Source of the DNA: a virus
Taxonomy: Duplodnaviria > Heunggongvirae > Uroviricota > Caudoviricetes
DNA: 57,091 bases
Virus record (IMG/VR): IMGVR_UViG_2534681675_000025
Coordinates: 1-57,091 of that record
Direction: 5' to 3' (one strand)
Below are positions 17,248 through 52,020 of this stretch, in pieces (within the stretch, counting starts at the first letter, position 1; every line of letters starts with the position of its first letter). Both the position numbers and the translations under genes were made by a program. The notes under the pieces were generated by a model that saw only the letters and a list, made by a program, of their open reading frames with translations, had not been told where the DNA came from and ran no database searches.

Positions 17248-17350
17248 GTTTCACGCTTACTGAGTATGTTACGATTTTGCACATTCTGCATAAGCGCGCA
17301 TGTCTATGCTGCATGAGATCGCATGATCGTTTGAGGATCTTTTGTGTTAA

Positions 17351-17375
17351 GGCCCGCCAGTTCTGGCGGGCTTTT
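17351..17375 (+). terminator. Putative terminator after the lipoprotein gene
   Basis: ggcccgccag-ttc-tggcgggc stem followed by tttt. Confidence 0.5.
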
Positions 17376-17420
17376 GCGTAGATCATGCAGGTGCATGAAA
17401 ACCACTACATAAAGCGGGCA

Positions 17421-17439
17421 GGCGTGGCGGGGATACGAG
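17421..17439 (+). other. Candidate cos (cohesive end) site of prophage 1
   Basis: ggcgtggcggggatacgag followed by cgcgcgct; resembles the P2/186 cohesive-end sequence as I recall it (GGCGAGGCGGGGAAAGCAC then TGCGCGCT). Confidence 0.5.
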
Positions 17440-17549: not shown

Positions 17550-18248
17550 ATGGTTATGTTAGTGGATGACTGTCCACGATGTGGATCACAAAAAATAGCG
17601 TTTGATGTTAATGGGCTGAATTGCACTAGGGTTTACAATGCATTGGGCGGGGGTAAAACATACGAGTACGAGGTCTATTGTGTTTGCCGAGAGTGTCATA
17701 AAACGACAATGTTTCTTTGCAGACCTTTAACGAAAAATAAAACTTTAGATGGCTATAATTGGGAAAGTGGAATATTCGGCTTAAAGGAAGTTGCAGAGGT
17801 TGTTAGGCCTATATCACCGGCAGACTTAGCAGTAGAGGAGCCACCAGAGTTCTTACCTGAGCATATCAATAGTGCATATGAGGAAGGGGCGAAATGTTTG
17901 GCTATAGGTTGTTATAATGCAGCAGCAACCATGTTTAGGCTTTGCCTTGATTATGCCACAAAAGGACTTCTTCCTGATGGGGAGCAAGGGCCTGCGCAAA
18001 AAATAAGGAGAAGCCTAGGGTTAAGAATGGAGTGGTTATTTGATAATCATCTACTGCCTGAAGCTTTAAGGGAACTAGCTGAATGCGTTAAAGATGACGG
18101 AAATGATGGAGCGCATGAAGGTATTTTGGATAAAGCTGCTGCTGAGGATCTTGAAGATTTTACCTATCTTTTTTTAGAACGGCTTTACACTGAACCTCAA
18201 CGCCTTATCGAAGCCAAGACAAGGCGTGAACAAAGAAGAAACAAATAA
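17550..18248 (+). CDS. Zinc-ribbon plus alpha-helical domain protein (possibly DUF4145-like), inserted between cos and Q
   Basis: 232 aa; N-terminal CPRCG...CVCRECH four-Cys ribbon; RBS gggagga before ATG; convergent with Q, 3' ends 8 bp apart. Confidence 0.7.
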   Translation: MVMLVDDCPRCGSQKIAFDVNGLNCTRVYNALGGGKTYEYEVYCVCRECHKTTMFLCRPLTKNKTLDGYNWESGIFGLKEVAEVVRPISPADLAVEEPPEFLPEHINSAYEEGAKCLAIGCYNAAATMFRLCLDYATKGLLPDGEQGPAQKIRRSLGLRMEWLFDNHLLPEALRELAECVKDDGNDGAHEGILDKAAAEDLEDFTYLFLERLYTEPQRLIEAKTRREQRRNK

Positions 18249-29098: not shown

Positions 29099-29696
29099 TC
29101 TGCTGCCACCGGGTTCAACTTCACTGGAGCGCCGACTGGCGCAAACCTGTAGCGGGATTTCTGATCTGCAGGTGCCGCTGCGTGACTTGTGGAATCCGGC
29201 TACCTGTCCGGTCAGCTTCCTGCCTTATCTCGCCTGGGCGTTCTCTGTGGATCGCTGGGACGAGGGCTGGACAGAAAGCGTCAAACGCCAGGTAGTGAAG
29301 GATGCTTTTTATATTCATCAGCATAAAGGAACTACCAGTGCCGTGCGGCGGGTGGTGGAACCGTTCGGATTCCTGATCCGCATTATTGAGTGGTGGCAGA
29401 CCGGAGAAACACCGGGCACGTTTCGCCTGGATATCGGCGTGCAGGACCAGGGCATCACTGAAGATACCTATCTGGAACTTGAGCGGCTGATAAGCGATGC
29501 CAAACCATGTAGCCGTCACATGATCGGCATGTCCATCAATCTGCAGACCAGCGGTCCGCATTGGGTGGGGGCCGCCAGCTATCTTGGCGAAGAAATCACG
29601 ATCTATCCGTATATCAACGAAACAATTATTTCCGGCGGCACCGCGCATGAAGGCGGGGCGGTCCATGTTATTGACACAATGAGAGTGAATCCATGA
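29091..29696 (+). CDS. I: Baseplate protein (P2 gpI family)
   Basis: 201 aa, begins MNSLLPPGSTSLERRL. Confidence 0.85.
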   Translation: MNSLLPPGSTSLERRLAQTCSGISDLQVPLRDLWNPATCPVSFLPYLAWAFSVDRWDEGWTESVKRQVVKDAFYIHQHKGTTSAVRRVVEPFGFLIRIIEWWQTGETPGTFRLDIGVQDQGITEDTYLELERLISDAKPCSRHMIGMSINLQTSGPHWVGAASYLGEEITIYPYINETIISGGTAHEGGAVHVIDTMRVNP

Positions 29697-31210
29697 GCAC
29701 AAAATTTTATACCCTGCTGACGGATATTGGCGCGGCGAAACTTGCCAGCGCCGCCGCGCTCGGTGTGCCGCTAAAAATTACCCATATGGCGGTGGGCGAT
29801 GGCGGCGGAACATTGCCAACGCCGGACGCCAAGCAGACAGCATTGGTAAATGAGAAACGCCGGGCTGCGCTGAATATGCTCTATATCGACCCGCAGAACA
29901 GCAGCCAGATTATTGCTGAACAGGTGATCCCTGAAAACGAGGGCGGTTGGTGGATACGTGAAGTGGGCCTGTTTGATGAGTCCGGGGCATTGATTGCCGT
30001 GGGCAACTGCCCGGAAAGCTATAAGCCGCAACTGGCTGAAGGCAGCGGGCGTACCCAGACCGTGCGCATGGTGCTGATTACCAGCAGCACGGACAATATC
30101 ACCCTGAAAATCGACCCTGCCGTAGTGCTGGCAACCCGCAAGTATGTGGATGACAAGGTACTGGAGCTGAAGGTGTACGTGGATGATCAGATGGCAAAAC
30201 ATCTTGCCGCACCGGACCCGCATTCACAGTATGCACCCAAAGAAAGTCCGACGTTTACCGGGACACCAAAAGCGCCAACTCCAGCGGCAGGGAATAACAC
30301 CACGCAGGTTGCGACCACCGCGTTTGTTCAGGCGGCACTGACGGCTCTTATTAATGGTGCGCCAGCCACGCTGGACACGCTGAAAGAAATAGCCGCAGCC
30401 ATTAACAATGATCCGAATTTCAGTACCACCATTAACAATGCGCTGGCACTGAAAGCGCCGTTGTCGAGTCCGGCACTCACCGGAACGCCAACAGCCCCCA
30501 CTGCTGCACAGTCGGTCAACAATACACAGATTGCCACCACGGCTTTTGTGAAATCGGCGATTGCAGCAATGGTAGGTTCTGCACCTGCGGCACTGGATAC
30601 ACTGAACGAACTGGCGTCGGCGTTGGGGAATGATCCGAACTTTGCCACGACAATGCTTAATGCGCTGGCAGGTAAACAACCGCTGGACAATACGCTGACT
30701 AATTTGAGTGGAAAGGATGTCGCTGGTCTTCTCGCATACCTTGGTTTGGGAGAAGGTGCTCCAGCTATTGGCGTTCCGTTCTTCTGGCCGTCCGCCGCAA
30801 TGCCAGATACCGTAATCGAAAGCTGGTCCGGCATGGTGTTTTTGAAGTTCAACGGCGCGAAATTCTCTGCCACTGATTACCCTGTGCTGGCGAAAGTGTT
30901 TCCTTCGCTGGTATTACCTGAAGCCCGCGGTGATTTCATTCGTATCTGGGATGATGGCCGTGGTGTTGATAGTGGCCGTGCGTTACTTTCCGCGCAATCA
31001 GACGATTTCAAAACGCACGAGCATAAAATTTTAGGGCTAAATGGAAGTGGCAGTAATGTAGTGTTTGGCACCGTTTCGAATGCTTCTCCATTATATACCA
31101 GCGGCGTTAGTCAGCCGGGTGGAAGTGCTTTGCCCGCTTTTCAAAACCCAGGCGGTACTGAAACGCGTCCCCGTAACATCGCATTCAACTTTTTAGTAAG
31201 GGCTAAATAA
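29693..31210 (+). CDS. H: Tail fibre protein (P2 gpH family)
   Basis: 505 aa; conserved N-terminus; internal repeats of the LDTLxELAxALGNDPNF motif. Confidence 0.85.
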   Translation: MSTKFYTLLTDIGAAKLASAAALGVPLKITHMAVGDGGGTLPTPDAKQTALVNEKRRAALNMLYIDPQNSSQIIAEQVIPENEGGWWIREVGLFDESGALIAVGNCPESYKPQLAEGSGRTQTVRMVLITSSTDNITLKIDPAVVLATRKYVDDKVLELKVYVDDQMAKHLAAPDPHSQYAPKESPTFTGTPKAPTPAAGNNTTQVATTAFVQAALTALINGAPATLDTLKEIAAAINNDPNFSTTINNALALKAPLSSPALTGTPTAPTAAQSVNNTQIATTAFVKSAIAAMVGSAPAALDTLNELASALGNDPNFATTMLNALAGKQPLDNTLTNLSGKDVAGLLAYLGLGEGAPAIGVPFFWPSAAMPDTVIESWSGMVFLKFNGAKFSATDYPVLAKVFPSLVLPEARGDFIRIWDDGRGVDSGRALLSAQSDDFKTHEHKILGLNGSGSNVVFGTVSNASPLYTSGVSQPGGSALPAFQNPGGTETRPRNIAFNFLVRAK

Positions 31211-31803
31211 TGAAACCTGTTTTTGATGAAAATGGACTGGCTACAGTGCCGGGTGATATGCGTTGTTTTTATTATGATGCAGTAACGTATGAATATACGG
31301 GCTGGTCTGATGAATATATTAATACTGGTATAAGTATGCCCGCCTGTTCCACTGGTATTGACCCTGGCGAAAACATTCCGGGAAAAGTGGCTGTATTTAC
31401 AGGTAAGGGATGGAGCCATGAAGAGGACCATCGCAATGAGACTGTTTACTCAATCGAAAATGGCGCAGCTGTTACAGTGGATTATATCGGTGCCATCAAA
31501 AACGGTTATGTCACGCTTTCACCGTTAACGCCATATGATAAATGGGATGGTGAGAAATGGGTGACAGATACTGAGGCACAACACGGTGCCGCAGTAGAAG
31601 CGGCAGAAGCACAGCGTCAGCCACTGATTGATGCTGCAATGGCTTCCATCAGTCTGATTCAGCTGAAATTACAGGCCGGGCGGAAGCTGACGCAGGCAGA
31701 AACCACCCGGCTTAACGCCGTGCTTGATTACATTGACGCGGTGACGGCAACAGATACGAGCACCGCTCCGGATGTCATCTGGCCTGAACTGCCGGAGGCG
31801 TAG
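31210..31803 (+). CDS. G: Tail fibre assembly protein (P2 gpG family)
   Basis: 197 aa, start overlaps H stop. Confidence 0.8.
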   Translation: MKPVFDENGLATVPGDMRCFYYDAVTYEYTGWSDEYINTGISMPACSTGIDPGENIPGKVAVFTGKGWSHEEDHRNETVYSIENGAAVTVDYIGAIKNGYVTLSPLTPYDKWDGEKWVTDTEAQHGAAVEAAEAQRQPLIDAAMASISLIQLKLQAGRKLTQAETTRLNAVLDYIDAVTATDTSTAPDVIWPELPEA

Positions 31804-32209
31804 GCCATTCAATATCTGGAGCACTGGAGGTATCAACCAGTTCCAGTGCGTCCAGATAATCCAGCCACAAATTATATTGCGCCAGTTCCTCACCTTTCAG
31901 ACGACCAATAGCCGCTTTACCAGGCCATTGCTTGGTATTCATATATTCGTTGGACTGATTAATCAATTGCTGTTTTTTCAATTCGGCTGCGGCAATCTGT
32001 TCCTCATGTGTTGGTGGTGGAATTTCAGACCATGCAGGAAAACCATTTTCCCCAGCGATACGGATTTTTCCTTTCGGCGGTAATCCGGAAAACTCAATAT
32101 ACACCTGCTCATCAACTTCAACAGCATCATCTGGCCATGAATTTACATTGATGTAGTCATCCTTAAGCGCAGGATTCACAAAAATATTTAAAGATGGACT
32201 AAAAAACAC
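31775..32209 (-). CDS. G: Tail fibre assembly protein (gpG family), prophage 2
   Basis: 144 aa; Tfa-like C-terminus; 3' end overlaps prophage 1 G by 29 bp, convergent. Confidence 0.75.
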   Translation of the reverse strand: MFFSPSLNIFVNPALKDDYINVNSWPDDAVEVDEQVYIEFSGLPPKGKIRIAGENGFPAWSEIPPPTHEEQIAAAELKKQQLINQSNEYMNTKQWPGKAAIGRLKGEELAQYNLWLDYLDALELVDTSSAPDIEWPTPPAVQAR

Positions 32210-32210
32210 A

Positions 32211-33692
32211 TCACCCTCCTATAGCAACATAACAGCCCGATACAGGATTTGCGGCAGTCGCTACGCTGGAAAAACCACGAAAGCCGCTTTTTGTGATTGC
32301 GGAGGCAGATAGTATTCCGGCACCCGAAGGTGTATGCCCCACGTGGCTGGCAACCATCACGTAGCACGCCGACGGAAAAGCGAAAGGGAAATTGTTTAAA
32401 TATCCCGCATCATCCCCCAGACTTCCCCCAAACTGCCCCACTCCCCACTGGATAATAAGTGGTCTCCGAACGCCAGAAATAATTAATGGAATTGCTACAT
32501 ACCCATTCACCAACATAGCGCCGGTTGTTGCGCCAGCCAGAGCCAATTCCCCCAAACCAAGGTAATCAAGAACTCCCTGAGTGCTGGTTTTACCAAGAAT
32601 GGCACGTCCAACACTTGTCAACGCGGTTAACGCGGCACGATCTGCCCCTGTAAAATATGGGAGTTTATCTGCTGATGTAGCAAGCTCCGCCAGCGCCGTC
32701 AGGGTGGCATCCTTCGGTTGCTTACCCGCAAGCGCGTTAGTCATGGTGGTCGCAAAATTCGGGTCATTGCCCAGCGCCGCAGCCAGTTCGTTCAGCGTGT
32801 TCAGTGCATCAGGTGACGAATCTACAAGTGCGGCAATCGCGGCCATAACGAAAGCCGTGCTTGCGATCTGGGTACTATTAGTCCCCTGTGGCGCTGTTGG
32901 TGTTGTTGGCGTTCCGGTCAGTGCCGGGCTGTTTAATGGTGCTTTCTTGCTCGTTTCATCCATTACCGCCTTAACAGCTTTTGGTGTCGCTGCCAGCGTT
33001 TCAGACGTGCTGTTCGTGGCGCTACTGAGCTGAACAATCCCTTTTTGTGTAGTGGTGGCGTTCTGGGCGGTATATTTCCCGTTAGCCAGGTCATATGCAG
33101 CCTTAACCGCTTTCGGTGTTGCGGCCAGTGTTTCTGATTCACTGTTAATTGCACTGCTTAACTGAGTAAAACCTTTTACGGTCAGCGAGGCGTCCGGGTG
33201 ACGTCGTGACTGTTCGTGCTCTGATATTTTATCATCCACATATTTGCGGGTTGCCAGAACCACAGACGGGTCGATTTTCAGCGTGATGGCTTCGGTGTTC
33301 GTGACAACCAGAATCATGCGGATAGTCTGGGTGCGTCCACTGCCTTCCTGCAACTGCGGTTTGTACGTTTCCGGGCAGTTTGCCACCGCAATGAGTACAC
33401 CTTCATCATCATAAAGCCCAATCTCACGGATCCAGAATCCTCCCTCGTTTTCAGGGATGATTTGCTCCGCAATAATCTGGCTCTGATTGTTAGGGTCAAC
33501 ACTCAGAAGATTCAGCGGTGCAATGCGTTTCTGGTTAATCAGTTTTGTTTGTGCAGGGTCTGGTGTTGGTAACACACCATTTGCATCACCAACGGCCATT
33601 TGCGTCAGATTCAGCTTACTGCCGAGCATCGTCGCGTTAGCCAGTCGTGCCGCGCCCTGATTAGTCAGAATGGCGTAGTATTTCACTGTCAT
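32211..33692 (-). CDS. H: Tail fibre protein (gpH family), prophage 2
   Basis: 493 aa; N-terminus homologous to prophage 1 H; contains LNTLNELAAALGNDPNFATT motif. Confidence 0.85.
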   Translation of the reverse strand: MTVKYYAILTNQGAARLANATMLGSKLNLTQMAVGDANGVLPTPDPAQTKLINQKRIAPLNLLSVDPNNQSQIIAEQIIPENEGGFWIREIGLYDDEGVLIAVANCPETYKPQLQEGSGRTQTIRMILVVTNTEAITLKIDPSVVLATRKYVDDKISEHEQSRRHPDASLTVKGFTQLSSAINSESETLAATPKAVKAAYDLANGKYTAQNATTTQKGIVQLSSATNSTSETLAATPKAVKAVMDETSKKAPLNSPALTGTPTTPTAPQGTNSTQIASTAFVMAAIAALVDSSPDALNTLNELAAALGNDPNFATTMTNALAGKQPKDATLTALAELATSADKLPYFTGADRAALTALTSVGRAILGKTSTQGVLDYLGLGELALAGATTGAMLVNGYVAIPLIISGVRRPLIIQWGVGQFGGSLGDDAGYLNNFPFAFPSACYVMVASHVGHTPSGAGILSASAITKSGFRGFSSVATAANPVSGCYVAIGG

Positions 33693-39262: not shown

Positions 39263-40063
39263 TTAACCGCGCTTCGCCTTCTGCGTCGCGGTGGTTTTTC
39301 GTGTTGCAGGCTTCCGCGTTGTCTTTTTACTTTTGCTGCTTTCGTCCTGCGCCTGCGGTGTGCTGGCATCTTCTGGTGCGGCTGCGGAATCGGCTTTTTT
39401 CAGGGCGCGGGAAAGGGTTGCAATCTCGCGTTTCACACCTGCGTTCGGGTTCAGGTGCATCGCTTCGCGCAGCAGCTTCAGTGATGAGGCCATGCTGTCC
39501 GCATCGGTCAGGCCACGACGGGCAAAGGCGCACGCCTTGCATAATTTGGCGCGCACTTCGTCCGGCATGTCCTGGTCGGTGACAATCTCCCGGAGGGTGT
39601 CCAGTGGTTCGATAAAGGCGGACAAATCCGCGTCGGCATCCGCCCCGGCCTGCGTCAGTACCGGGTTGCAGATTTCTTCGGTCAGCACTGTGGCAGCAGT
39701 ACGGCCAAAGTTATCCGGCATAATGAGGTTATGACGGACCACATACGCACCAATACGCAACGCCAGCGGAAGATCGCCGCAGTCAATCGCCCACACCATC
39801 AGCGTGGCAATCACTTCATCCTGCTGCCCGCCGTCAGCCTCCAGCGTTCCCTCAATCCAGCCGGAAAAATCCGGCAACAACTCTTTTTTGATGGCGGCTT
39901 TCGCGCTTCTGGCCTGTACGCCCTTAAGCCGGGCCTGTGCCAGACGCAGACGATACAGCACCTCTTCATGCGCGGTACGCGCGGCGTGGTCCACGCCTTC
40001 ATTCGCCCGGCCTGCGCGCTGTGCCATCACGTTCTGCCAGTGTTGCTGTGCAGGAGTAATCAT
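39263..40063 (-). CDS. M: Terminase small/endonuclease subunit (gpM family), prophage 2
   Basis: 266 aa homologous to prophage 1 M. Confidence 0.8.
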   Translation of the reverse strand: MITPAQQHWQNVMAQRAGRANEGVDHAARTAHEEVLYRLRLAQARLKGVQARSAKAAIKKELLPDFSGWIEGTLEADGGQQDEVIATLMVWAIDCGDLPLALRIGAYVVRHNLIMPDNFGRTAATVLTEEICNPVLTQAGADADADLSAFIEPLDTLREIVTDQDMPDEVRAKLCKACAFARRGLTDADSMASSLKLLREAMHLNPNAGVKREIATLSRALKKADSAAAPEDASTPQAQDESSKSKKTTRKPATRKTTATQKAKRG

Positions 40064-42176: not shown

Positions 42177-43928
42177 ATGATTCAGGACGCTTTTGTGCGC
42201 CAGCGTGCGCGGCAACTTTACTGGCAGGGGTATCCGCCCGCAGAAATATCACGTCTGATGGGAATAAACCCGAACACGATTTATGCGTGGAAAAAACGCG
42301 ACCAGTGGGATGAAACACCACCCGTGCAGCGTGTCACGCAGTCCATCGATGTGCGCCTCATCCAGCTTACTGAAAAACAGAATAAAACAGGCGGTGACTT
42401 TAAGGAAATAGACCTGCTGACCCGGCAGCTTAAAAAGCTGCATGATGGCCAGCCGGATGTGATGGCCGCAGGAAAGAAAGGCCGGGCGAAAAAACTCAAA
42501 AATCATTTCACGCCGGAACAGATTGCCGCACTGCGGGAAAAAATCATCAGCAGGCTGGAGTGGCATCAGCGGGGCTGGTTTGACTCCCTGACCCTTTGCA
42601 GGGAAGCCGGGATACGTAACAGGATGATCCTGAAATCCCGACAGATTGGGGCGACCTGGTATTTTGCACAGGAAGCACTGCTGATGGCGCTGCGTGACGA
42701 TGTGGCGCAGCCTTACCAGCGTAACCAGATTTTTTTGTCTGCGTCGCGTCGTCAGGCGTTCCAGTTTAAAAGCATTATTCAGAAGGCCGCGGCTGAAGTT
42801 GATGTGGAGCTGAAAGGGGGCGATAAAATCATCCTCTCCAACGGCGCAGAGCTGCATTTTCTCGGCACTTCTGCTGCGTCGGCACAGTCCTATACGGGCA
42901 ATTTTTATTTTGATGAATTTTTCTGGGTCAGTCGCTTTGCTGAACTGCGCAAGGTGGCTGGCGCTATGGCAACCCTCAGCGGACTGCGGCGCACCTACTT
43001 CTCCACGCCATCCACCGAAACGCACGAGGCATACGCCTACTGGAACGGCGACCGCTGGAACGAGAAAAAGGCCTCGCATAAACGCCAGCGTTTTTCTGTG
43101 GACTGGAAAACGCTGCATAACGGGCTTATCTGCCCTGACCGGACGTGGCGGCAAATTGTCACGCTGGAAGATGTGGTTAATCACGGCTGGAAACACACCG
43201 ATATCGACGAAATTCGTGATGAAAACACCGAAGACGAGTTCCTCAATCTCTATATGTGTGAGTTTGTCCGCGAAGGGGAATCGGCATTTAACCTGAATAT
43301 CCTGATTGGCTGCGGTGTTGACGGATACGACGACTGGAAAGACTGGAAACCTTTTGCTCCCCGCCCGATGGGGAATCGTCCGGTATGGATTGGGTATGAC
43401 GCAAACGGCAGCAGTGGCAACGGCGACAGCGGCGCTGTGTCCGTGGTGGTTCCTCCGGCTGTTCCTGGTGGCCGTTTTCGAACGGTGGAGACGCGACGCG
43501 TTCAGGGGCTGGAGTTTGAAGAACAGGCCAGAGTCATTGAAGATTTCACGTATCGCTACAACGTGGAACACATCGGCATTGATGTGACGGGCGGGAACGG
43601 GGAGGCTGTTTATCAGATAGTGAAACGGTTTTTCCCTGCCGCTATTCCGTACACCTTCACGCTGTCATCAAAACGGTCGCTGGTACTGAAAATGCTGCAA
43701 ATAATGCGTGCCGGGCGGTGGGAATACGATCGCGCCGAACGCGAGCTGGTCGCGGCCTTTAACGCCGTGCGTAAGGTGAAAACACCGGGCGGCTTTATCA
43801 CTTACGAAACGGACCGCGCGAGGGGGATCAGCCACGGCGACCTTGCGTGGGCAACCATGCTTGCTGTCATTAACGAACCAATTGGCGGCGAAGGAGAAAA
43901 CGAGCGTTTCACGGTTATGGAGTTCTGA
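42177..43928 (+). CDS. P: Terminase large (ATPase) subunit (gpP family), prophage 2
   Basis: 583 aa homologous to prophage 1 P. Confidence 0.9.
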   Translation: MIQDAFVRQRARQLYWQGYPPAEISRLMGINPNTIYAWKKRDQWDETPPVQRVTQSIDVRLIQLTEKQNKTGGDFKEIDLLTRQLKKLHDGQPDVMAAGKKGRAKKLKNHFTPEQIAALREKIISRLEWHQRGWFDSLTLCREAGIRNRMILKSRQIGATWYFAQEALLMALRDDVAQPYQRNQIFLSASRRQAFQFKSIIQKAAAEVDVELKGGDKIILSNGAELHFLGTSAASAQSYTGNFYFDEFFWVSRFAELRKVAGAMATLSGLRRTYFSTPSTETHEAYAYWNGDRWNEKKASHKRQRFSVDWKTLHNGLICPDRTWRQIVTLEDVVNHGWKHTDIDEIRDENTEDEFLNLYMCEFVREGESAFNLNILIGCGVDGYDDWKDWKPFAPRPMGNRPVWIGYDANGSSGNGDSGAVSVVVPPAVPGGRFRTVETRRVQGLEFEEQARVIEDFTYRYNVEHIGIDVTGGNGEAVYQIVKRFFPAAIPYTFTLSSKRSLVLKMLQIMRAGRWEYDRAERELVAAFNAVRKVKTPGGFITYETDRARGISHGDLAWATMLAVINEPIGGEGENERFTVMEF

Positions 43929-44974
43929 TGAGCAGAAAAAATAAAAAAGTGCGCATGAGTTCACGCATTGATCTCGCTGATGCACTCAGGAAAGAATCGT
44001 CGCTCAGTGCATTCACTTTTGATGGTCCTTATCGCCTGACCGGGCATGATTTGCTGGACAATATGTACTGTGCTGATAACGGGCGGTGGTATGAAACCCC
44101 GGTGGACTGGTACGGTCTGGCAAGAGCCGCCCGGCAAACGTCCTGGCATCAGTCTGCGCTTTACTTTAAGCGCAATGTATTGCTCGGTTGCTACATCCCG
44201 CACCCGCTGCTTTCCCGGCAGGATTTCTCGGCGCTGGCGCTGGACTGGTTTGTGTTCGGTAACGCATTCCTTGAGCTTCGAAGCAATATGCTCGGCGAAC
44301 CGCTTAAATTACGGCACGCCCTGGCGAAATACATGCGACGCGGAAGCGATCTTGAATCATGGTGGTATGTGCAGGATGGCAAGGACGCGTTTCAGTTTCG
44401 CCCAGGCAAAGTGTGCCACCTGATGAATCCTGACATTAACCAGGAAATCTACGGCATGCCGGAATATCTCGGCGCATTACTCTCGGCCAGCCTGTCTCAT
44501 TCGGCGGACATGTTCAGAAAACTGTATTACGACAACGGATCCCACGCCGGGTGCATCATCTACATCGGTGCAGCGCAGGTAAACCGTGAAAGCATGGACT
44601 CCCTGAAAGAAACGCTACAGGGTGCACGTGGTGGTGGTGCGTTTAAAAACGTGCTCATTCATGCGCCCAACGGGGGCAAAGAAGGTGTGCAAATTTTGCC
44701 GTTCCAGCAGATCACCGCAAAGGATGAGTTCATGAATGTTAAGTCGGCATCCCGTGATGATGTGCTGGCTGCGCACCGCGTTCCGCCGCAACTGATGGGG
44801 GCGATGCCGGGCGAAAAAAGTGCGTTTGGTGATGTGGAAAAGGCCGCGCGGGTTTACGCAATTAACGAGCTGATGCCTGTCATGGAGGCCATGAAGCACA
44901 TCAATGACTGGCTTGGCGAAGAGGTGATCCGTTTTAATTCTTATGCTCTTCTTGATGAAAAAACAGCCCCGTGA
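43928..44974 (+). CDS. Q: Portal protein (gpQ family), prophage 2
   Basis: 348 aa homologous to prophage 1 Q. Confidence 0.9.
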   Translation: MSRKNKKVRMSSRIDLADALRKESSLSAFTFDGPYRLTGHDLLDNMYCADNGRWYETPVDWYGLARAARQTSWHQSALYFKRNVLLGCYIPHPLLSRQDFSALALDWFVFGNAFLELRSNMLGEPLKLRHALAKYMRRGSDLESWWYVQDGKDAFQFRPGKVCHLMNPDINQEIYGMPEYLGALLSASLSHSADMFRKLYYDNGSHAGCIIYIGAAQVNRESMDSLKETLQGARGGGAFKNVLIHAPNGGKEGVQILPFQQITAKDEFMNVKSASRDDVLAAHRVPPQLMGAMPGEKSAFGDVEKAARVYAINELMPVMEAMKHINDWLGEEVIRFNSYALLDEKTAP

Positions 44975-44990
44975 TGGGGCTGTCCTTTTT
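44962..44990. terminator. Bidirectional hairpin between convergent Q and the adjacent inserted gene
   Basis: acagcccc-gtga-tggggctgt stem flanked by an A-run and a T-run; Q stop codon lies in the loop. Confidence 0.5.
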
Positions 44991-45513
44991 ACCAGAGTTG
45001 AACCATTTTCTGGGTGCCGTCAGGCTTGAGATTATCAATTTCAGAGAGAACGTAATATTGAATGGCTTCACAAACGGTGGTGTATGGTGAATTACCTTCT
45101 TTAAGTGGCACGATATTATTATTAACGCGAACCTGTATTTCATCGTTATACATTGCGATCGAAAGAGGAGTATGCACGAACGCGACTTCGCCAGGTGTGT
45201 CGTCAACCACTGTCTCAATGCTGAAAATCAGTTTTCGCTCATCATTGCTGCCTCTTGCTTTGGGGGTTGCGGCAGGAATCTGGGATAAAGGCATTCTGCG
45301 AAATCCTTCGGCCGTTTCCAGTCCGCATGAAACGTAATGCTGGCGATTACCGTCGATATCTGTCCACGTTTGTGACGGCAGATCCAGCGAGATTTCATAA
45401 GCATCAACAATTCCCTGGGCAAGGCGTACAAGCGGGGTCAGGTCTTCATTGCGGCGAAAGCTCTCCTTTACCTGCTCTCGTTTTTCTCTTAACTGCTTGT
45501 AATTAATGACCAT
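44989..45513 (-). CDS. Hypothetical protein inserted next to Q (convergent), prophage 2
   Basis: ATG at 45513 preceded by GGAGG; about 174 aa; no recognisable motif. Confidence 0.6.
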   Translation of the reverse strand: MVINYKQLREKREQVKESFRRNEDLTPLVRLAQGIVDAYEISLDLPSQTWTDIDGNRQHYVSCGLETAEGFRRMPLSQIPAATPKARGSNDERKLIFSIETVVDDTPGEVAFVHTPLSIAMYNDEIQVRVNNNIVPLKEGNSPYTTVCEAIQYYVLSEIDNLKPDGTQKMVQLW

Positions 45514-46010
45514 AAGACAGCCTCCATTGATTTCTTTGCTCGTATTTTGCACTTATGAAGTGTGGTCGGCAAGGTGCCGTATCGCTGACGCGCTTCGCTT
45601 GTCTGCTGCTTCGCCGGGGCATAAAAAATTTATGCCCCGACTCTCCAGCTCCTGTATCAATCAGATAATTTCACGACGTCTTCCAACTTATCGCCATCAT
45701 CGACGGCCAGACTCTTACGCAATCCCATCGCGCTGATAGCATGTTCTCACTGCCTCAGTGCGATTTTGACGGCCTTATCTGTTATCCCATCAAATCAGAC
45801 CCCTTACGTCTTTTTCACGCTCAGCGTGAGCGATACAGCCATTCTGTTGTGTCACTGCGACATCGTTCAGGGAATGCTATCCCCCCCCTGAAACGCGGGC
45901 TGTTCCCCCGTCACCTGCGCGCAGAAAAAACGCGTTTTTTTGTGCACGCACGGATCCTTGACGGATCCAGCCGCCACGGGGGCCGGAAGGGCAAAAAGTC
46001 GTTCAAAAAA

Positions 46011-46040
46011 ATTGTGCAAATTTGTGCACTATTGTGCATT
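46011..46040. repeat. Three TTGTGCA half-site repeats at about 10-bp spacing (candidate operator or packaging-recognition repeats)
   Basis: attgtgcaaatttgtgcactattgtgcatt; followed by a hairpin (aaacgccctggaagagggcgtttt, 46043-46068). Confidence 0.4.
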
Positions 46041-46078
46041 AAAATAAACGCCCTGGAAGAGGGCGTTTTGGCTCATTT

Positions 46079-46339
46079 CTATAGCTTTGATGCAGGCTGG
46101 GCTAGATGCAAGGGTTGGACATACCAGCCTTTTGATAACCAACTCTCTGCAACCTCTTTACTCCTTGTTATTGCTGGTATTCCGATGCCGTTATTTACAT
46201 GCATCCATGCTACTGGCTCTGCTTCCAGTGATGCCAGTGCAATTTCATAAGCACGGCGCTCAATATTGTCTCGAACGTCCAGGCTGCCTATGCGCTCTTT
46301 GATTTCTTTAATCAGTTCTTTGTCGGTGAAAGTTGTCAT
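46079..46339 (-). CDS. Hypothetical protein
   Basis: 86-aa ORF in the operon downstream of A. Confidence 0.5.
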   Translation of the reverse strand: MTTFTDKELIKEIKERIGSLDVRDNIERRAYEIALASLEAEPVAWMHVNNGIGIPAITRSKEVAESWLSKGWYVQPLHLAQPASKL

Positions 46340-46614: not shown

Positions 46615-47106
46615 TCACTCTCCTTTGATGCGAATGCCAGTGGTACTCATTCTCCTGATTTCCCAGAGCACACGAGGAACACCACCGTTTCCGACCGGAT
46701 CGCGTTTACTCCGCAGGGCGACGCTTGATTCCGCCCAGCTTTTTCTTGGAGGAAGCTCTTTCACACGAACAAAACCAGCTGCGCGAAGAGATGCTCCTGA
46801 TTCATCTGCCTGGGTGTACGTAATACAACGTTGATAACCCATAGCTTTTGCTGCCCGCCAGACAGCACCATAAAGCGCGCTGTTAGCGTTGCGTTCTCCT
46901 GTGGTACATGTGCGATTTACTTCAAGCGTTAATCCATCGTCCAAATGTCGTGCAACAGGTCGACCGGCTGTCGCCACACCTATCAATTCTCCGGCATCAT
47001 TTCTCAGACCAATGCTGAATTTATGCCCCACCGGGGGTTTATTGTGTCGGTGATGTCTGGATATAAACGCCTTCGCAACACGAAGAGTAACCGGTGAAAT
47101 TTGCAT
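46615..47106 (-). CDS. Hypothetical protein; start taken at MQISPVTL
   Basis: ATG at 47106 preceded by AAGGAGAG and overlapping the upstream stop. Confidence 0.5.
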   Translation of the reverse strand: MQISPVTLRVAKAFISRHHRHNKPPVGHKFSIGLRNDAGELIGVATAGRPVARHLDDGLTLEVNRTCTTGERNANSALYGAVWRAAKAMGYQRCITYTQADESGASLRAAGFVRVKELPPRKSWAESSVALRSKRDPVGNGGVPRVLWEIRRMSTTGIRIKGE

Positions 47107-47108
47107 TC

Positions 47109-47423
47109 TCACTCTCCTTTGATGCCAATGTTTACAGTCTGGCAAGCTTCTCTGAGCACCCAGTCAACAGCGTCTTTCCATGCTCCGGTTTCGGTTGGCG
47201 GATTCTCACGCTTTACCAGTTCATAGAAACGTACTGCTCTAACCAGTCCATCTGACGGTTTTGCCTGTAGTGCAGCCTGAGCTATACGGTATGCCTGGAG
47301 CATACGGGCGTCGTTGATATCCATTCCGAACGGAATTTCTGATGATCGTGATTCTGCATCTTCAAGCCTGGCAATTTCTTTACGTAAAAAGTATTTCAAC
47401 TCTTGTTTTTGTTTTCTGTTCAT
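47109..47423 (-). CDS. Hypothetical protein
   Basis: 104-aa ORF. Confidence 0.5.
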
Positions 47424-47815: not shown

Positions 47816-48127
47816 TTATTCGGGAAATAACGCCCGGATATTTCCGGCCATCTGACTGGTTATCTGTGCGGTTGGTGCTGGCTGTGACACGGGGCGTTCT
47901 GTCCTGGTTTGTGTCAGGGATAACGCTTCATCGTCAGCCCATGCAGCCAGTCGGTAAGCCTCTGCCGGATTAATTTTCATAAGTGCCAGTCCGGCCAGAA
48001 AAGCCACACGTTGACCACTTTTGCGGGCTTCTGGTGTAAGGCTGTCCAGCCAGGCGCATGCTTTGCCTTCGTTCTTGACGGCGGCGGGCTTCAGATAGAA
48101 ACTTATCCGTCTGGTTGGTGTCGTCAT
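47816..48127 (-). CDS. parR: ParR-like ribbon-helix-helix partition adaptor
   Basis: Start ATG 48127 after AAGGAG, overlapping parM stop; RRISFYLKP...LDSLTPEARKSGQRVAFLAGLAL parallels plasmid R1 ParR (RTIAFKLNP...LDSIPQGERSRLNRAALTAGLAL). Confidence 0.65.
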   Translation of the reverse strand: MTTPTRRISFYLKPAAVKNEGKACAWLDSLTPEARKSGQRVAFLAGLALMKINPAEAYRLAAWADDEALSLTQTRTERPVSQPAPTAQITSQMAGNIRALFPE

Positions 48128-48131
48128 TGGT

Positions 48132-49091
48132 TTACTCCTTGTCCATTGCGTACAGCCCATTAACCAGAGCAAACTGTGGCACCCCGTCCGCGATGAAAGT
48201 CGCATTAACTCCGCAGGCTTCGCGGATAGCGGGTGCCACAATCTCCGCCCCGCCACCGACAACCATCACCCGCCCGTAACCCGAAAAACCCGCCAGCGCG
48301 CGGATCACGCGTTGTTTCAGTGTTTCTTCCTTTTCACGAATAACCGCCATCAGGCTGTTGTAATGCGCGTCATTGTGGATGTGCTGGCGCAGCCAGGCTT
48401 CATCATGGCGATGTTCGATAATGGTATTGGCGATGTGGTGACTGGTACGCATACCGTTAGTGGCCATCACCGACAGTACGGCATCGGCCATCAGGGAAAC
48501 GCCTACGTGTGGATCGCAAAACACCTGGCTGATACCTGCCAGTTGTCCCTGAACCTTTGCCACATCCAGCGTGGTTCCGCCTAAATCCACAATCAGCAGG
48601 GATTCAAACGGACTCATGTCAGCCAGTGCTTTAAAGCCAGCCGGAATGGATTCAGGCATAACCCGCACGTTACGGATAGTGAATGCCTCACCGTTCTGGT
48701 ACTCCACCGGGCGCATAACGTTCGCTTTTTTGCGGTTGATGTTGGCCATGTCCGGCTGTGCGTTTGTGTCGAAATACTCGCTCAGTGGCAGGGTGACAAC
48801 CACATCCACCTCCTGTGGTGTGATGCCTGATTTGACCAGCGCGTGGTGAATGGCGATTACATTCACATCGCTGTACTGGTATTGCGTGTCGGTCGTCTGG
48901 ACAAAGCGATCGCTGACCGGATCAAAACCATAGCGCACGCCATCAAGCATGTAGTTCGCAGGCTGCGAGCCACCGAACGGCGCAGACCATTCCGACTTGA
49001 AGCTGTTCGGGCTGATGGCGTTGCGGCGTTCGCTGTTCTCAGTCCATGCCAGCTTGATGTTGGTGGAGCCGTCGTCGATACAAATTTTCAT
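48132..49091 (-). CDS. parM: ParM/StbA-like actin-type segregation ATPase
   Basis: 319 aa; MKICIDDGSTNIKLAW..., SDVNVIAIHHAL, IRNVRVMPESIPAG, LLIVDLGGTTLD, VMVVGGGAE match plasmid R1 ParM throughout. Confidence 0.85.
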   Translation of the reverse strand: MKICIDDGSTNIKLAWTENSERRNAISPNSFKSEWSAPFGGSQPANYMLDGVRYGFDPVSDRFVQTTDTQYQYSDVNVIAIHHALVKSGITPQEVDVVVTLPLSEYFDTNAQPDMANINRKKANVMRPVEYQNGEAFTIRNVRVMPESIPAGFKALADMSPFESLLIVDLGGTTLDVAKVQGQLAGISQVFCDPHVGVSLMADAVLSVMATNGMRTSHHIANTIIEHRHDEAWLRQHIHNDAHYNSLMAVIREKEETLKQRVIRALAGFSGYGRVMVVGGGAEIVAPAIREACGVNATFIADGVPQFALVNGLYAMDKE

Positions 49092-49120: not shown

Positions 49121-49231
49121 CGTTTACGGGGTTTTTAAATCCCGTTTTTGCCTGTTTTATGCGCGCTTCATATATCGCGGCGCGTTTTTTGCTCATTTAC
49201 GGGATTTGTGAATCCCGTTTCTGTCTGTTTT
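49121..49231. repeat. Two 38-bp repeat units each containing an 8-bp-arm palindrome (ACGGGRTT-N4-AATCCCGT), upstream of parM; candidate parC-like centromere
   Basis: Units at 49121-49158 and 49194-49231 (cgtttacggggtttttaaatcccgtttttgcctgtttt and catttacgggatttgtgaatcccgtttctgtctgtttt). Confidence 0.45.
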
Positions 49232-52020
49232 TTGTTTCCATTGGTCAGGCCACCCCGCAGCAGGTCTGCTTTGCGGCGGGCGCGTTCAGTGGTTTCACTG
49301 ATTCTCTGTGCGTGCTCTGCGTCACGGATGGCGCGCAGCATGTCAGAAAGCACGGTAACGGGTGTCTTCATGGTGTTCTGGTCTTGCTGAAGTGTGGATG
49401 CCAGGCGTGCGGCGGCTTCGGGGTCTGATGCCCCCAGCTGTTCCAGATAACTGGCGACCGGGTTATGGCGGATCTCCGTGCTGCTTACGCCGTGATTACG
49501 GCTCAGGCGCTGCCAGAGCTGCGTGATTCGGTTGTCCGGGCGGGTATCCGGTTTGCGTACAATTTCAAATCCCTGCGGTGCAATGATGCTGCCGTCAACG
49601 TACAGACTGCCGCCCCGTAACAGGTGCTGCATCTGCTGTTCACCGATATGCAGGCCGAGAGATTCAGCAGACTCCCGCCATTCTTTAGCGAGTAATTCGT
49701 GGTTATCAGGCAAAGGCCGCTGCTGTTTGCGGCTCTGTGTCCAGCTCTGCATTTCATCACTGCTGTTTTTTGCCTGTTTGTCACGAAGCGAACGCATCAG
49801 CGCCCGGCGTTCGTGCCGTTTCAGTGAGCGCATCCATTCGTTCACTTCAACGCCGTCAGGGAGCTGCGGCCACGGTGCTGGCCGTTCTTCCGGCTGTTCT
49901 GTCCCGTTGTTGTCCGTTTCCTGTACACGGGGACAGTTATTGCCACGAGTCCAAGGGGCGGCAGGGCCGCCCTGAAGGTCAAAACCATTTTCGCGGGCGC
50001 TGTCTTCCGCTTCCGGTTTACGTCTTACCAGCTTCCAGTTATCCGGATGCGTGCACACACGGGAGGATTCCCCGATGAATGGCGACCAGATCCCGTAAAT
50101 CTGTACACTCTGTTCGCCGTAATCGTTCAGCTCATCTGCGAGGTCGTAGGCTGTGCGAATCAGGTAGTCCTTGCGCGGAACAAGTACGCCACCCTGTTTT
50201 TCAATGTAGGTGGCAAAACATCCGGCATCAGCGGCAGCGAGTACCGCATCCATTGCGTCATCCTTCAGCCGTTGCGGGCCTTCCGGGTTGCGTGCCATCT
50301 GGCTGGCAAGGCGGCGCAGTTCACGCCACACCTGACGGGAGGGGATGCCAAAGAACTGGAACTGGCGGACCCGATGAAGGCGCGCCCAGCCGATGGCGCG
50401 CTCCACGCTCTCGGCCATTGATTTTCCGGTTTCGTGGTCAACGCGTGGTTTGCCCGTTTTCGGGTCGATTCCATCCACGGCGCGGCTGTCCAGGTTTTTT
50501 CCGATGTAGGTGGCGATGTAGCTGGTTGGCGTGCCTTTGGAGCCGTCGACGTACTCCACCTTAAAGCGCGGAGTAATATCATTGCCCAGCTCGTGGCGGT
50601 CTTCCTGAATGGCAATATCGCGGGTGATGGCCACGATGCTGTCGATTTCTTCCGGATGAGCAAAGACCATCATATGCCAGTGCACGGTGCCGTCATGGTG
50701 AGGCTCCACCGTGCGGATGCCATACCAGCGCAGGCCGTCGCGGTTCAGTTTTTTGCGGACCGCCGCAAAAAACGTGTTAACCAGGTAATCGCTGGAGTCG
50801 CGCATGGTGGCCCCGTTCCATTTGGGATTCGGATGACCGTTCTCTGTTGTGGCGTGGTATTTTGACGGGCAGGTGACAGTCAGAAACACCGCTTTGTCGC
50901 CACGGGCTTCGGCCAGAAGTTCCAGTCCCTTCATGGTGGCCATCATTTCTGCCTTACGGTGAACCGGGTTACTTACTCCCGCGTAATACACTGTCTCGAG
51001 ATCAATCGTGAAACCGTCTTCGTTTTCCAGTTCGAAGCTCTTCAGGAAGTCGCGGGTTTTCTCGCGCTGTGCGCGAAACTCGCTTAACGCGTCCTGGCTC
51101 AGATAGGGTGATGTTTTTCTGGAAACCAGACAGGCGGCGCGGAGTTGTTCTTCTCTCCACTCACAACGTAACAGCCACAGTTTGCGTTTCCACCAGTCCG
51201 CACAGGTCAGGCGAAGGATTGCGCCCGGCAGCAGTTCCGTATCCGGTTCGCTCTTGTTCAGGGCTTCGTAATGTGGCGGCATGATGTGCAGGCGTAATGC
51301 GATACGAGCCAGCATCCGGTAAGCCTTCAACATTACATCCATGGTCAGCTCGCCATCTCTGGCACCAAAGCCATCGCAGAGTGTTTCGAAGGTGCTGCTG
51401 AACATCGCCGCGGTCATGGTGGCCAGCGTCTGTATCTGGTGCTTGTTGAGCTGCGGCAGGTAAAGCAAATCGTCCAGGCGTTCGCGCCCGGCAAGGGAGC
51501 GATAACCCGGTGTCAGCCAGCGTCCGTCAGTGCGATCCAGACGTTCGAATATTTTGCGCAGGGTTCCGCGTGCATAGCGTTCCGCCTGCCAGCTCTTTTT
51601 GCCTTTCTGGCGATCGGCTTCCTGTTTTTTGCGCAGGAAAGAGAGGTGGCGGCTCAGTGGTTCACGCAGATAAACAGGTAGTGCCTTTAGTGTGGCAAAG
51701 GCACGGGCTACCGGGTCTTGTTCTGTTGCCCGGCGCTTACTGATGATGCTCTGTGCCAGCTTTTCACGCTGTCCGGCTTCCTCAAGGGATGCCATGAGTT
51801 TTTTACCCATGGCGGATTGTGCGAAAAAGGCTTCTTCCTTCGCTTCCTGTTCTTCCTGTGCCCTTTTGTCCGCCTCAAGGTAGTAACGGATGGCGCGTTG
51901 CAGGTCGGTTTCAGTTTCCTGCCTGCGCTCCGTAAATCTGGCCGGATCAATGGCTGGCCGTGGTTCATTCCAGCTCCATGCAAACTCACTCATGGCTGGT
52001 ATCCCGTCACGCGCTGCCAC
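49168..52020 (-). CDS. A: Replication initiation endonuclease (P2 gene A family), prophage 2
   Basis: 950 aa; conserved TPTSYIATYIGKNLD and HWHMMVF regions shared with prophage 1 A; long C-terminal extension. Confidence 0.9.
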   Translation of the reverse strand: MAARDGIPAMSEFAWSWNEPRPAIDPARFTERRQETETDLQRAIRYYLEADKRAQEEQEAKEEAFFAQSAMGKKLMASLEEAGQREKLAQSIISKRRATEQDPVARAFATLKALPVYLREPLSRHLSFLRKKQEADRQKGKKSWQAERYARGTLRKIFERLDRTDGRWLTPGYRSLAGRERLDDLLYLPQLNKHQIQTLATMTAAMFSSTFETLCDGFGARDGELTMDVMLKAYRMLARIALRLHIMPPHYEALNKSEPDTELLPGAILRLTCADWWKRKLWLLRCEWREEQLRAACLVSRKTSPYLSQDALSEFRAQREKTRDFLKSFELENEDGFTIDLETVYYAGVSNPVHRKAEMMATMKGLELLAEARGDKAVFLTVTCPSKYHATTENGHPNPKWNGATMRDSSDYLVNTFFAAVRKKLNRDGLRWYGIRTVEPHHDGTVHWHMMVFAHPEEIDSIVAITRDIAIQEDRHELGNDITPRFKVEYVDGSKGTPTSYIATYIGKNLDSRAVDGIDPKTGKPRVDHETGKSMAESVERAIGWARLHRVRQFQFFGIPSRQVWRELRRLASQMARNPEGPQRLKDDAMDAVLAAADAGCFATYIEKQGGVLVPRKDYLIRTAYDLADELNDYGEQSVQIYGIWSPFIGESSRVCTHPDNWKLVRRKPEAEDSARENGFDLQGGPAAPWTRGNNCPRVQETDNNGTEQPEERPAPWPQLPDGVEVNEWMRSLKRHERRALMRSLRDKQAKNSSDEMQSWTQSRKQQRPLPDNHELLAKEWRESAESLGLHIGEQQMQHLLRGGSLYVDGSIIAPQGFEIVRKPDTRPDNRITQLWQRLSRNHGVSSTEIRHNPVASYLEQLGASDPEAAARLASTLQQDQNTMKTPVTVLSDMLRAIRDAEHAQRISETTERARRKADLLRGGLTNGNKKQTETGFTNPVNEQKTRRDI

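Follow-up and report, generated by a model that had tools for sequence, protein, structure and literature searches.

The cosB subsite of phage lambda is laid out as R3-I1-R2-R1, with R sites bound by the small terminase subunit gpNu1 and a bend introduced by IHF, while P2 packages monomeric circles. The published core of the cohesive-end site (cos) of P2 and of its satellite P4 measures 55 bp (Ziermann & Calendar 1990, as cited in PMC5694545 and PMC9594776), and the two elements are described as having only this core in common (PMC9594776, PMC5694545). The region from the portal gene Q to the replicase gene gpA is the cos-proximal cargo hotspot of P2-like phages (PMC9122126). Here, we analyzed IMG/VR virus record IMGVR_UViG_2534681675_000025 (hereafter the window, the whole stretch of 57,091 nucleotides), which contains parts of two P2-family prophages, and focused on three phased TTGTGCA repeats next to a GC hairpin in prophage 2. 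The phage records closest to this locus are P88-like (Xuanwuvirus, Peduoviridae), with 90-95% identity. The repeats probably constitute a cosB-like distal terminase-recognition subsite of a P88-like cos region, with the GC hairpin being a separate element, the terminator of a cargo gene.

The phased repeats and the predicted cos site

The repeat segment, attgtgcaaatttgtgcactattgtgcatt, occupies window positions 46011-46040. As the preliminary description of this DNA had stated, it holds three copies of TTGTGCA at roughly helical-turn spacing. Their starts at 46012, 46022 and 46032 are exactly 10 bp apart, and TTGTGCA occurs a fourth time at 45940-45946. The 7-mer as such is not enriched in the 57-kb window, where 11 copies stand against 15.1 expected. 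The triple, however, is unique in the window among 7-mer triples whose copies are 9-12 bp apart, and no 7-mer triple spaced in this way occurred in 200 windows simulated with a first-order Markov model. Hence, the non-randomness resides in the phased cluster and not in the frequency of the 7-mer. A degenerate form of the site gave no second cluster across the 57-kb window.

The cos site of prophage 2 was located by homology. The reverse complement of 45897-45915, GGTGACGGGGGAACAGCCC, is GC-rich and identical at 13 of 19 positions to the P2 sequence GGCGAGGCGGGGAAAGCAC, the P88-type and P2 cos cores differing at the remaining 6 of 19. The predicted cos aligns without gaps to IMG/VR lineages bearing GGCGAGGCGGGGGAGCAAG at the equivalent place, and in relatives at a greater distance within IMG/VR the aligned position is taken by CTCCCCCGCCTCGCC, the reverse complement of which, GGCGAGGCGGGGGAG, is nearly identical to the P2 cohesive end. 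It is this gap-free alignment to distant relatives that places cos at 45897-45915, where the ends of P88-type virion DNA would be expected. The predicted sequence is invariant across all P88-type representatives. Furthermore, a heptamer related to its flank, (T/C)GCGCGC, is also found on the opposite side of cos in P2, P4 and prophage 1.

We gathered cos regions twice, once with the motif as search pattern and once, independently, through the portal protein as anchor, and then anchored all of them on cos. Removal of sequences more than 90% identical left 37 representatives, which include P2, P4, prophage 1 of the window, and P88-type and P2-cos-type IMG/VR lineages; 23 portal-anchored representatives were chosen without use of the motif. 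The phages 186, PSP3 and Ralstonia phiRSA1 were read separately from the 37. The layout is the same across the 37 non-redundant representatives, and these three phages fit it too. The representatives follow a common plan, in which cos is followed by a GC-rich heptamer, a T-run with TGCA, a spacer of about 65 bp and three TGCA cores. In the window, the elements are:

45897-45915, minus strand: 19-nt cohesive-end sequence (cos) predicted for prophage 2 from its homology with P2 and 186
45916-45922, no strand: TGCGCGC flank of cos, conserved in all P88-type and P2-cos-type IMG/VR lineages
45935-45946, plus strand: proximal site, a T7 run and GTGCA, the most conserved element of the region
45947-46004, no strand: lineage-specific spacer, about 0.6 bits, of constant length
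46005-46011, plus strand: A7 tract abutting the distal sites, 1.1 bits in GTGCA-type lineages, inconsistent in P2 and P4
46012-46018, plus strand: distal site 1, TTGTGCA, family core RTGCAA; TGCA at +72 from the proximal core in 19 of the 23 portal-anchored representatives
46022-46028, plus strand: distal site 2, TTGTGCA, family core RTGCAC; TGCA at +82 in 15 of the 23
46032-46038, plus strand: distal site 3, TTGTGCA, family core TGCA; last conserved base and border of the cargo hotspot
46046-46068, minus strand: intrinsic terminator of the convergent 86-aa cargo gene, a 9-pair stem with a loop of 5

Distances from cos are nearly fixed. The proximal TGCA lies at +26 to +28 from the cos edge in 36 of the 37 representatives, and the distal TGCA cores lie at +98/100, +108/110 and +118/121, that is 72, 82 and 92-95 bp beyond the proximal core across the family; the window repeats are 100-123 bp from cos. 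Information content, expressed in bits per position and given for the 37 and the 23 representatives, respectively, peaks at cos and again at the sites:

Proximal site: 1.83 and 1.89
Distal site 1: 1.42 and 1.35
Distal site 2: 1.20 and 1.12
Distal site 3: 0.95 and 1.01
Spacer: 0.61 and 0.64
After distal site 3: 0.12 and 0.15

Lineages that the first regular expression had missed show the same plan. The motif itself comes in two flavors, ATGCA in P2, 186 and P4, and GTGCA in P88-like and several other lineages. The proximal site is homologous to TGCATTAAAACC, which lies at the edge of the 55-bp core of P2, P4 and 186.

The spacer between the proximal and distal sites changes with the lineage. 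Its sequence is swapped in other lineages and in a satellite from Escherichia coli ST131 (see below), while the 72-bp spacing between the proximal and distal sites is kept, and it often holds a GC-rich palindrome. In the window, the spacer contains the direct repeat ACGGATCC TTG ACGGATCC at 45950-45968 (copies at 45950 and 45961), with two BamHI sites, and beside it lies the perfect palindrome AAAAAACGCGTTTTTT at 45925-45940. Both the repeat and this palindrome are confined to the E. coli P88-type lineage and are replaced elsewhere, including in the satellite. Many P2-family phages and satellites, P2 itself not among them, carry, at about 45-75 bp from cos, a GC-rich palindrome of the CGCCAG-nn-CTGGCG type, examples being window 17352-17372 (GCCCGCCAGTTCTGGCGGGC), P4 (locus L134, 960-978) and loci L176 and L188. 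This palindrome might terminate transcription in both directions or bind another protein.

Counterparts in phages and satellites

When TGCAT sites are counted in nucleotides before cos in the standard orientation, the same arrangement is found in the reference phages:

P2: proximal site 29; distal sites 101, 111 and 123
186: proximal site 29; distal sites 101, 111 and 124
PSP3: proximal site 29; distal sites 101, 111 and 120
P4: proximal site 29; distal sites 101, 111 and 124
phiRSA1 (Ralstonia): proximal site 29; distal sites 100, 110 and 129
Window 17297-17439, plus strand, prophage 1 counterpart: distal CGCAT, TGCAT and CGCAT at 17297, 17310 and 17320; proximal TGCAT at 17392

The cos of prophage 1 is at 17421-17439 (GGCGTGGCGGGGATACGAG), with sites 29, 101, 111 and 124 nt before it. 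The cluster of TGCA-type repeats that had been pointed out beside the cos-like site of prophage 1 is thus real, and its offsets are those of P2, 186 and P4. The locus of prophage 2 resembles the P2, P4 and 186 cos regions in its place between the portal gene Q and the replication/hotspot side and in its homologous 19-nt cohesive end, but its repeats use GTGCA where those of P2, P4 and 186 use ATGCA. The P2-family phage phiCTX (NC_003278), the record of which annotates repeats R1-R6 and two IHF sites around cos, likewise shows a TGCA at 29 nt before cos, with (T/C)GCAG repeats at greater distances; it differs in repeat sequence and spacing and in its annotated IHF sites, of which none is predicted in 45897-46040. 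In HP1, whose cos is of a different type, three CACGGAAA repeats near the right end are found instead. The distal triple is unannotated in the reference records of P2, 186 and P4, and it lies outside the published 55-bp core. In P2 cosmids, transduction is three to four orders of magnitude higher with longer cos flanks (PMC9594776), which is compatible with a distal recognition array.

Satellites add a second line of comparison. Aligned without gaps on cos, P2 and P4 share the 55-bp core and an island, GGTGCATG...TTGCAT at -111/-101, and nothing else. A genome scan seeded with Psu returned only six satellites, all of ATGCA flavor, and the triple is kept in five P4-like satellites, from Enterobacter, Tatumella, Citrobacter, Kluyvera and Photorhabdus. 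A satellite of GTGCA flavor came from a search of E. coli genomes. In the ST131 strain 2019_APHA, a 12.5-kb island sits between gcd and hpt (NZ_CP051609.1, 3782600-3795100; locus L308, 2595-15099, with the cos block at L307, 3001-3149). Terminase, portal and tail genes are absent from this island, which encodes two integrases, a helix-turn-helix regulator, an Icd-like protein, an 889-aa Toprim primase, an Ogr/Delta zinc finger and MazEF. It also encodes a divergent P2-family major capsid protein (PF05125), 36% identical to the gpN of the window and with an N-terminal extension of 119 aa. The only homology between island and window runs from ~30 bp before cos through the third repeat (about -30 to +123); within this P88-type cos block, the island matches the TTGTGCA triple and the proximal site exactly and has other sequence in the middle of the spacer. 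The same cos variant occurs in IMG/VR locus L133. The island looks like a satellite of P88-like helpers that carries its own capsid gene.

The flavor of a satellite matches that of its helper, ATGCA with P2-type and GTGCA with P88-type phages. Two unrelated helper-satellite pairs, P2/P4 and P88-like/ST131, thus each keep the triple in the flavor of the helper, and this retention appears to be the strongest functional argument for a role in packaging.

The same comparison bears on whether the sites of the packaging signal, instead of binding terminase, are read by an architectural protein of the host, such as IHF, HU or Fis, or act as intrinsically bent DNA. That the A7 tract abuts the distal sites and the T7 run the proximal site would fit such a reading, as would the two IHF sites annotated in the cos region of phiCTX and a structural model of the small terminase subunit gpM that has no recognizable DNA-binding domain. 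However, the IHF consensus, WATCAANNNNTTR, is absent within one mismatch from 45897-46040, and the flavor differs among phages of the same host species and follows the helper-satellite pair. Flavors that track such pairs are expected of a phage-encoded reader and not of a shared host protein, and we regard a host factor or a static bend as unlikely. By eye, Ogr/Delta-type TGT-N12-ACA, CRP and DnaA boxes did not fit the repeats either.

A candidate terminase-recognition array

The fixed distance to cos, the position at the edge of the hotspot and the retention in satellites favor terminase recognition in packaging, one of two roles that the preliminary description had offered for the repeats. 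We propose that the cos region extends from ~30 bp on the portal side of 45897-45915 through the third repeat at 46038. Its four TGCA-core sites, at 0, 72, 82 and 92 bp with the first of them 28 bp from cos, would lie roughly on one helical face and would be bound by terminase, most plausibly by an oligomer of gpM, with the flanking A and T tracts possibly aiding DNA bending. Wrapping or looping of the ~65-bp spacer could then set the large subunit gpP over the nick sites, so that the array would act as lambda cosB (the R sites) does relative to cosN. If the whole stretch as far as the third repeat is required in cis, cargo between gpA and cos could be swapped only on the far side of this repeat, which would hence be the hotspot border. 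The sequences directly show the position, phasing and conservation of the sites, the hotspot border, the retention in satellites and the geometry of the terminator; the need for the block in packaging, the identity of its binder, and its part in initiation or termination are what we infer from the comparison.

The likeness to lambda cosB lies in short repeats on one side of the nick that span ~120 bp, one near and the others ~100 bp away, and that delimit the cis-acting packaging signal. The two differ in that they have no sequence homology, that gpM (PF05944) is unrelated to gpNu1, that the window repeats are direct and 10 bp apart, and that no IHF site is predicted in 45897-46040. The gpM of prophage 2, the candidate binder, is 39% identical to that of prophage 1, and the gpM family of small terminases (PF05944) has no homologue of solved structure. 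An AlphaFold model built from 2 sequences (pLDDT 75) is all-alpha, with a TPR-like array and a basic disordered C-terminal tail. A scan of viral contigs seeded with gpM returned only relatives 95-100% identical to the window, and covariation of gpM with repeat flavor would in any case be confounded by overall phylogeny.

Several points weigh against assigning the repeats to terminase recognition. The support for binding and for a packaging role is comparative throughout. Site 3 is degenerate in many lineages, and sites 1 and 2 are also decayed in a few (L175, L181, L193). The published minimal P2/P4 cos, 55 bp long, leaves the triple out, so that its role may be limited to making packaging more efficient. 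An obvious helix-turn-helix is lacking in the gpM model; in comparison with the PDB its best matches are TPR proteins with E above 0.05, and this shallow model matched no known small-terminase fold. The missing IHF consensus in 45897-46040 counts here as well as against a host factor. Moreover, the sites are on the right-arm side of cos, and they may have a cosQ-like role in termination instead of a cosB-like role in initiation. Finally, LR595891.1 (Xuanwuvirus P88_4B11), the only linear record of the group, opens at 45993|45994, its ends (loci L002 and L010) lying between GGAAGGGCA and AAAATTCG, ~78 bp from the cos placed by homology. This opening is either an arbitrary assembly choice or a hint of other true ends. 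We rejected it as the position of cos and regard it as an assembly choice, because the P2-like core, flanks and spacing all align at 45897-45915.

Recognition repeats at a cos site would be ordinary in principle; what they would add is a larger extent for a much-used packaging signal, beyond its 55-bp core, an account of the hotspot border and a pointer to helper-satellite specificity classes. Tentatively, and with rather less confidence than for the window locus, one might extend this to the family as a whole. The P2-family packaging signal could be bipartite and ~150-170 bp long, with the distal triple as a second specificity determinant that exists in at least two flavors and is copied by satellites from their helpers; the ST131 island could represent a previously unnoticed kind of satellite, and the element could fix the hotspot border. 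The comparison suggests that the textbook 55-bp cos of P2 and P4 is only the inner half of the signal, and it offers a testable map of the packaging signal for prophages that about one in five complete E. coli genomes carry. If true, it would account for the far better packaging of longer cos fragments in cosmids and antimicrobial-delivery systems based on P2/P4, and for the start of the cargo (defense) hotspot in P2-like phages at about 125 bp from cos. Flavor (ATGCA or GTGCA) together with the cos core might then serve as a sequence marker for predicting which helper mobilizes which satellite.

The hotspot border, the hairpin and the neighboring genes

The cargo hotspot begins at the third repeat. 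Nine related phages align almost without variation from Q to this repeat and are unrelated directly beyond it. Among 120 IMG/VR loci found with the repeat triple as pattern, 48 different 12-mers follow the third repeat, and T-run-GTGCA stands exactly 72 nt upstream of the triple in 106. A 151-bp block containing the sites is present in 1150 of 5426 complete E. coli genomes, and the matches almost always, in about 1140 genomes, end at query position 149, which is 46038.

A conserved-variable junction that falls exactly at the third repeat could also mean that the repeats are a recombination site driving cargo exchange. Indeed, Rousset et al. noted that the hotspot abuts cos and speculated that cohesive ends promote recombination (PMC9122126). 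Yet no dedicated recombinase travels with the block, and any essential cis element should in any case end in a sharp border. Recombination also leaves unexplained the fixed distance to cos and the retention in satellites, and in P4 the hotspot is on the opposite side of cos. We thus consider a recombination site very unlikely.

The hairpin at 46046-46068 is a rho-independent terminator of the convergent cargo gene or operon and not a partner of the repeats. The stem seen in the preliminary description is real, but the T-run and the terminator geometry belong to the minus strand, on which AAACGCCCTCTTCCAGGGCGTTT is followed by the tail ATTTTAAT (the U-run tail also being given as AUUUUAAU). The RNA folds with -14.6 kcal/mol (z = -2.7), the terminator scan calls it, and it lies 10 nt past the stop codon of the open reading frame (ORF) at 46079-46339 on the minus strand. 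It is found only in relatives with the same cargo cassette, namely P88 and a few others.

The repeats themselves might be a weak terminator or insulator that keeps early-operon or cargo transcription out of cos, given that sites 2 and 1, read on the minus strand, have the potential to pair (GTGCA/TGCAC) ahead of a T7 stretch, and that the distal sites of P4 fall within a strong 13-bp hairpin followed by a U-rich stretch (-22 kcal/mol, z = -3.9). In the window, however, 46014-46029 fold into a stem of 5 pairs with -6.1 kcal/mol and z = -0.87, no better than shuffled sequences, and the ST131 satellite (z = -0.76) and P2 (z = -0.66) behave alike. A strong terminator is already present just upstream at 46046-46068, conservation concerns specific bases and distance to cos and not compensatory pairing, and site 3 and the proximal site would be left without a function. 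Taken together, these data make a terminator role quite improbable. The P4 hairpin (locus L134, 895-925, 100-130 nt before cos), which encloses two distal TGCAT sites and recurs in P4-like satellites, directly follows psu, so that packaging sites of the P4 type may double as the psu terminator.

The genes that bear on the locus are:

39263-40063, minus strand: gpM-like small terminase subunit of prophage 2, candidate binder (PF05944, E = 3.5e-37)
42177-43928, plus strand: gpP-like large terminase subunit, named terminase ATPase subunit GpP in PhiR44_2, P88 and other records
43928-44974, plus strand: gpQ-like portal protein, with cos downstream of its gene
46079-46339, minus strand: first cargo gene, 86 aa, PHROG 5117 (no assigned function), reading towards the repeats
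47816-48262, minus strand: StbB-like protein (Plasmid_stab_B)
48132-49091, minus strand: ParM (PF06406, PF21523)
49168-52020, minus strand: gpA replicase

The order Q, cos, repeats, hotspot, (ParM), gpA is found in the window and in about 110 IMG/VR loci, and it is kept in each locus with sufficient flanking DNA. The second role offered in the preliminary description was that of repressor sites for a downstream cargo operon, or more generally of operator or promoter elements for hotspot genes. P2 lends this some color, its old/tin promoter lying, by record annotation, ~25-50 bp beyond the distal sites with an inferred -35 element that overlaps the outermost TGCAT. At the window repeats, however, no sigma-70-like promoter was found, the adjacent cargo genes are convergent, and so is the first downstream ORF in 60 of 75 distinct contexts. 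Furthermore, the motif cluster does not recur in the immunity region, and the block stays constant while the cargo changes. The repressor proposal is thus not supported, and a regulatory function of the repeats in general has very little probability.

With ParM and Plasmid_stab_B encoded 1.8-3 kb away (47816-49091), the repeats might also be taken for a parC-like centromere. Centromeres often consist of 10-11-bp iterons, and the likeness to parC/ParR of plasmid R1 lies in short, helically phased direct repeats with a ParM/StbB pair nearby. We rejected this reading as extremely improbable. Unlike parC, the block does not precede parM; it lies about 2 kb past parR, with five genes between, and it is present in many elements that have no parMR, among them P2, 186, P4, phiT5282H, a prophage of E. 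coli ES1 and the ST131 island. In 26 further IMG/VR loci with gpA downstream, no ParM homologue was found.

Small ORFs that cover the repeats (45741-46250 on the plus strand, 45911-46039 on the minus strand, and the hypothetical coding sequences in PhiR44_2 and P88) were treated as spurious, since relatives do not conserve them and they extend into variable DNA. Among the cargo genes that separate cos from parMR, one encodes a Mom-like DNA-modification protein (46615-47145, minus strand; PHROG 1384, matching PF25680 weakly) and another a small protein with a C4 zinc finger of the ClpX type (PF06689; 47420-47752, minus strand). On the other side, each prophage has an extra gene inserted between cos and the portal gene, so that both have a second, small site for cargo towards Q. 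Prophage 2 carries a 187-aa PHROG 5091 gene without assigned function (44989-45552, minus strand), which occurs only in some P88-like relatives, and prophage 1 a 232-aa PHROG 1305 'DNA binding protein' gene (17550-18248, plus strand).

At 29693-33692, the two prophage parts meet head-to-head at their tail-fiber and fiber-assembly genes (H and G forward, G' and H' reverse), and both are without the half from sheath to ogr. The junction is 100% contiguous in only one of the 5426 complete E. coli genomes (MFDS1019527, NZ_CP169309.1, 2108030-2110430), which suggests a chromosomal inversion or recombination between two prophages.

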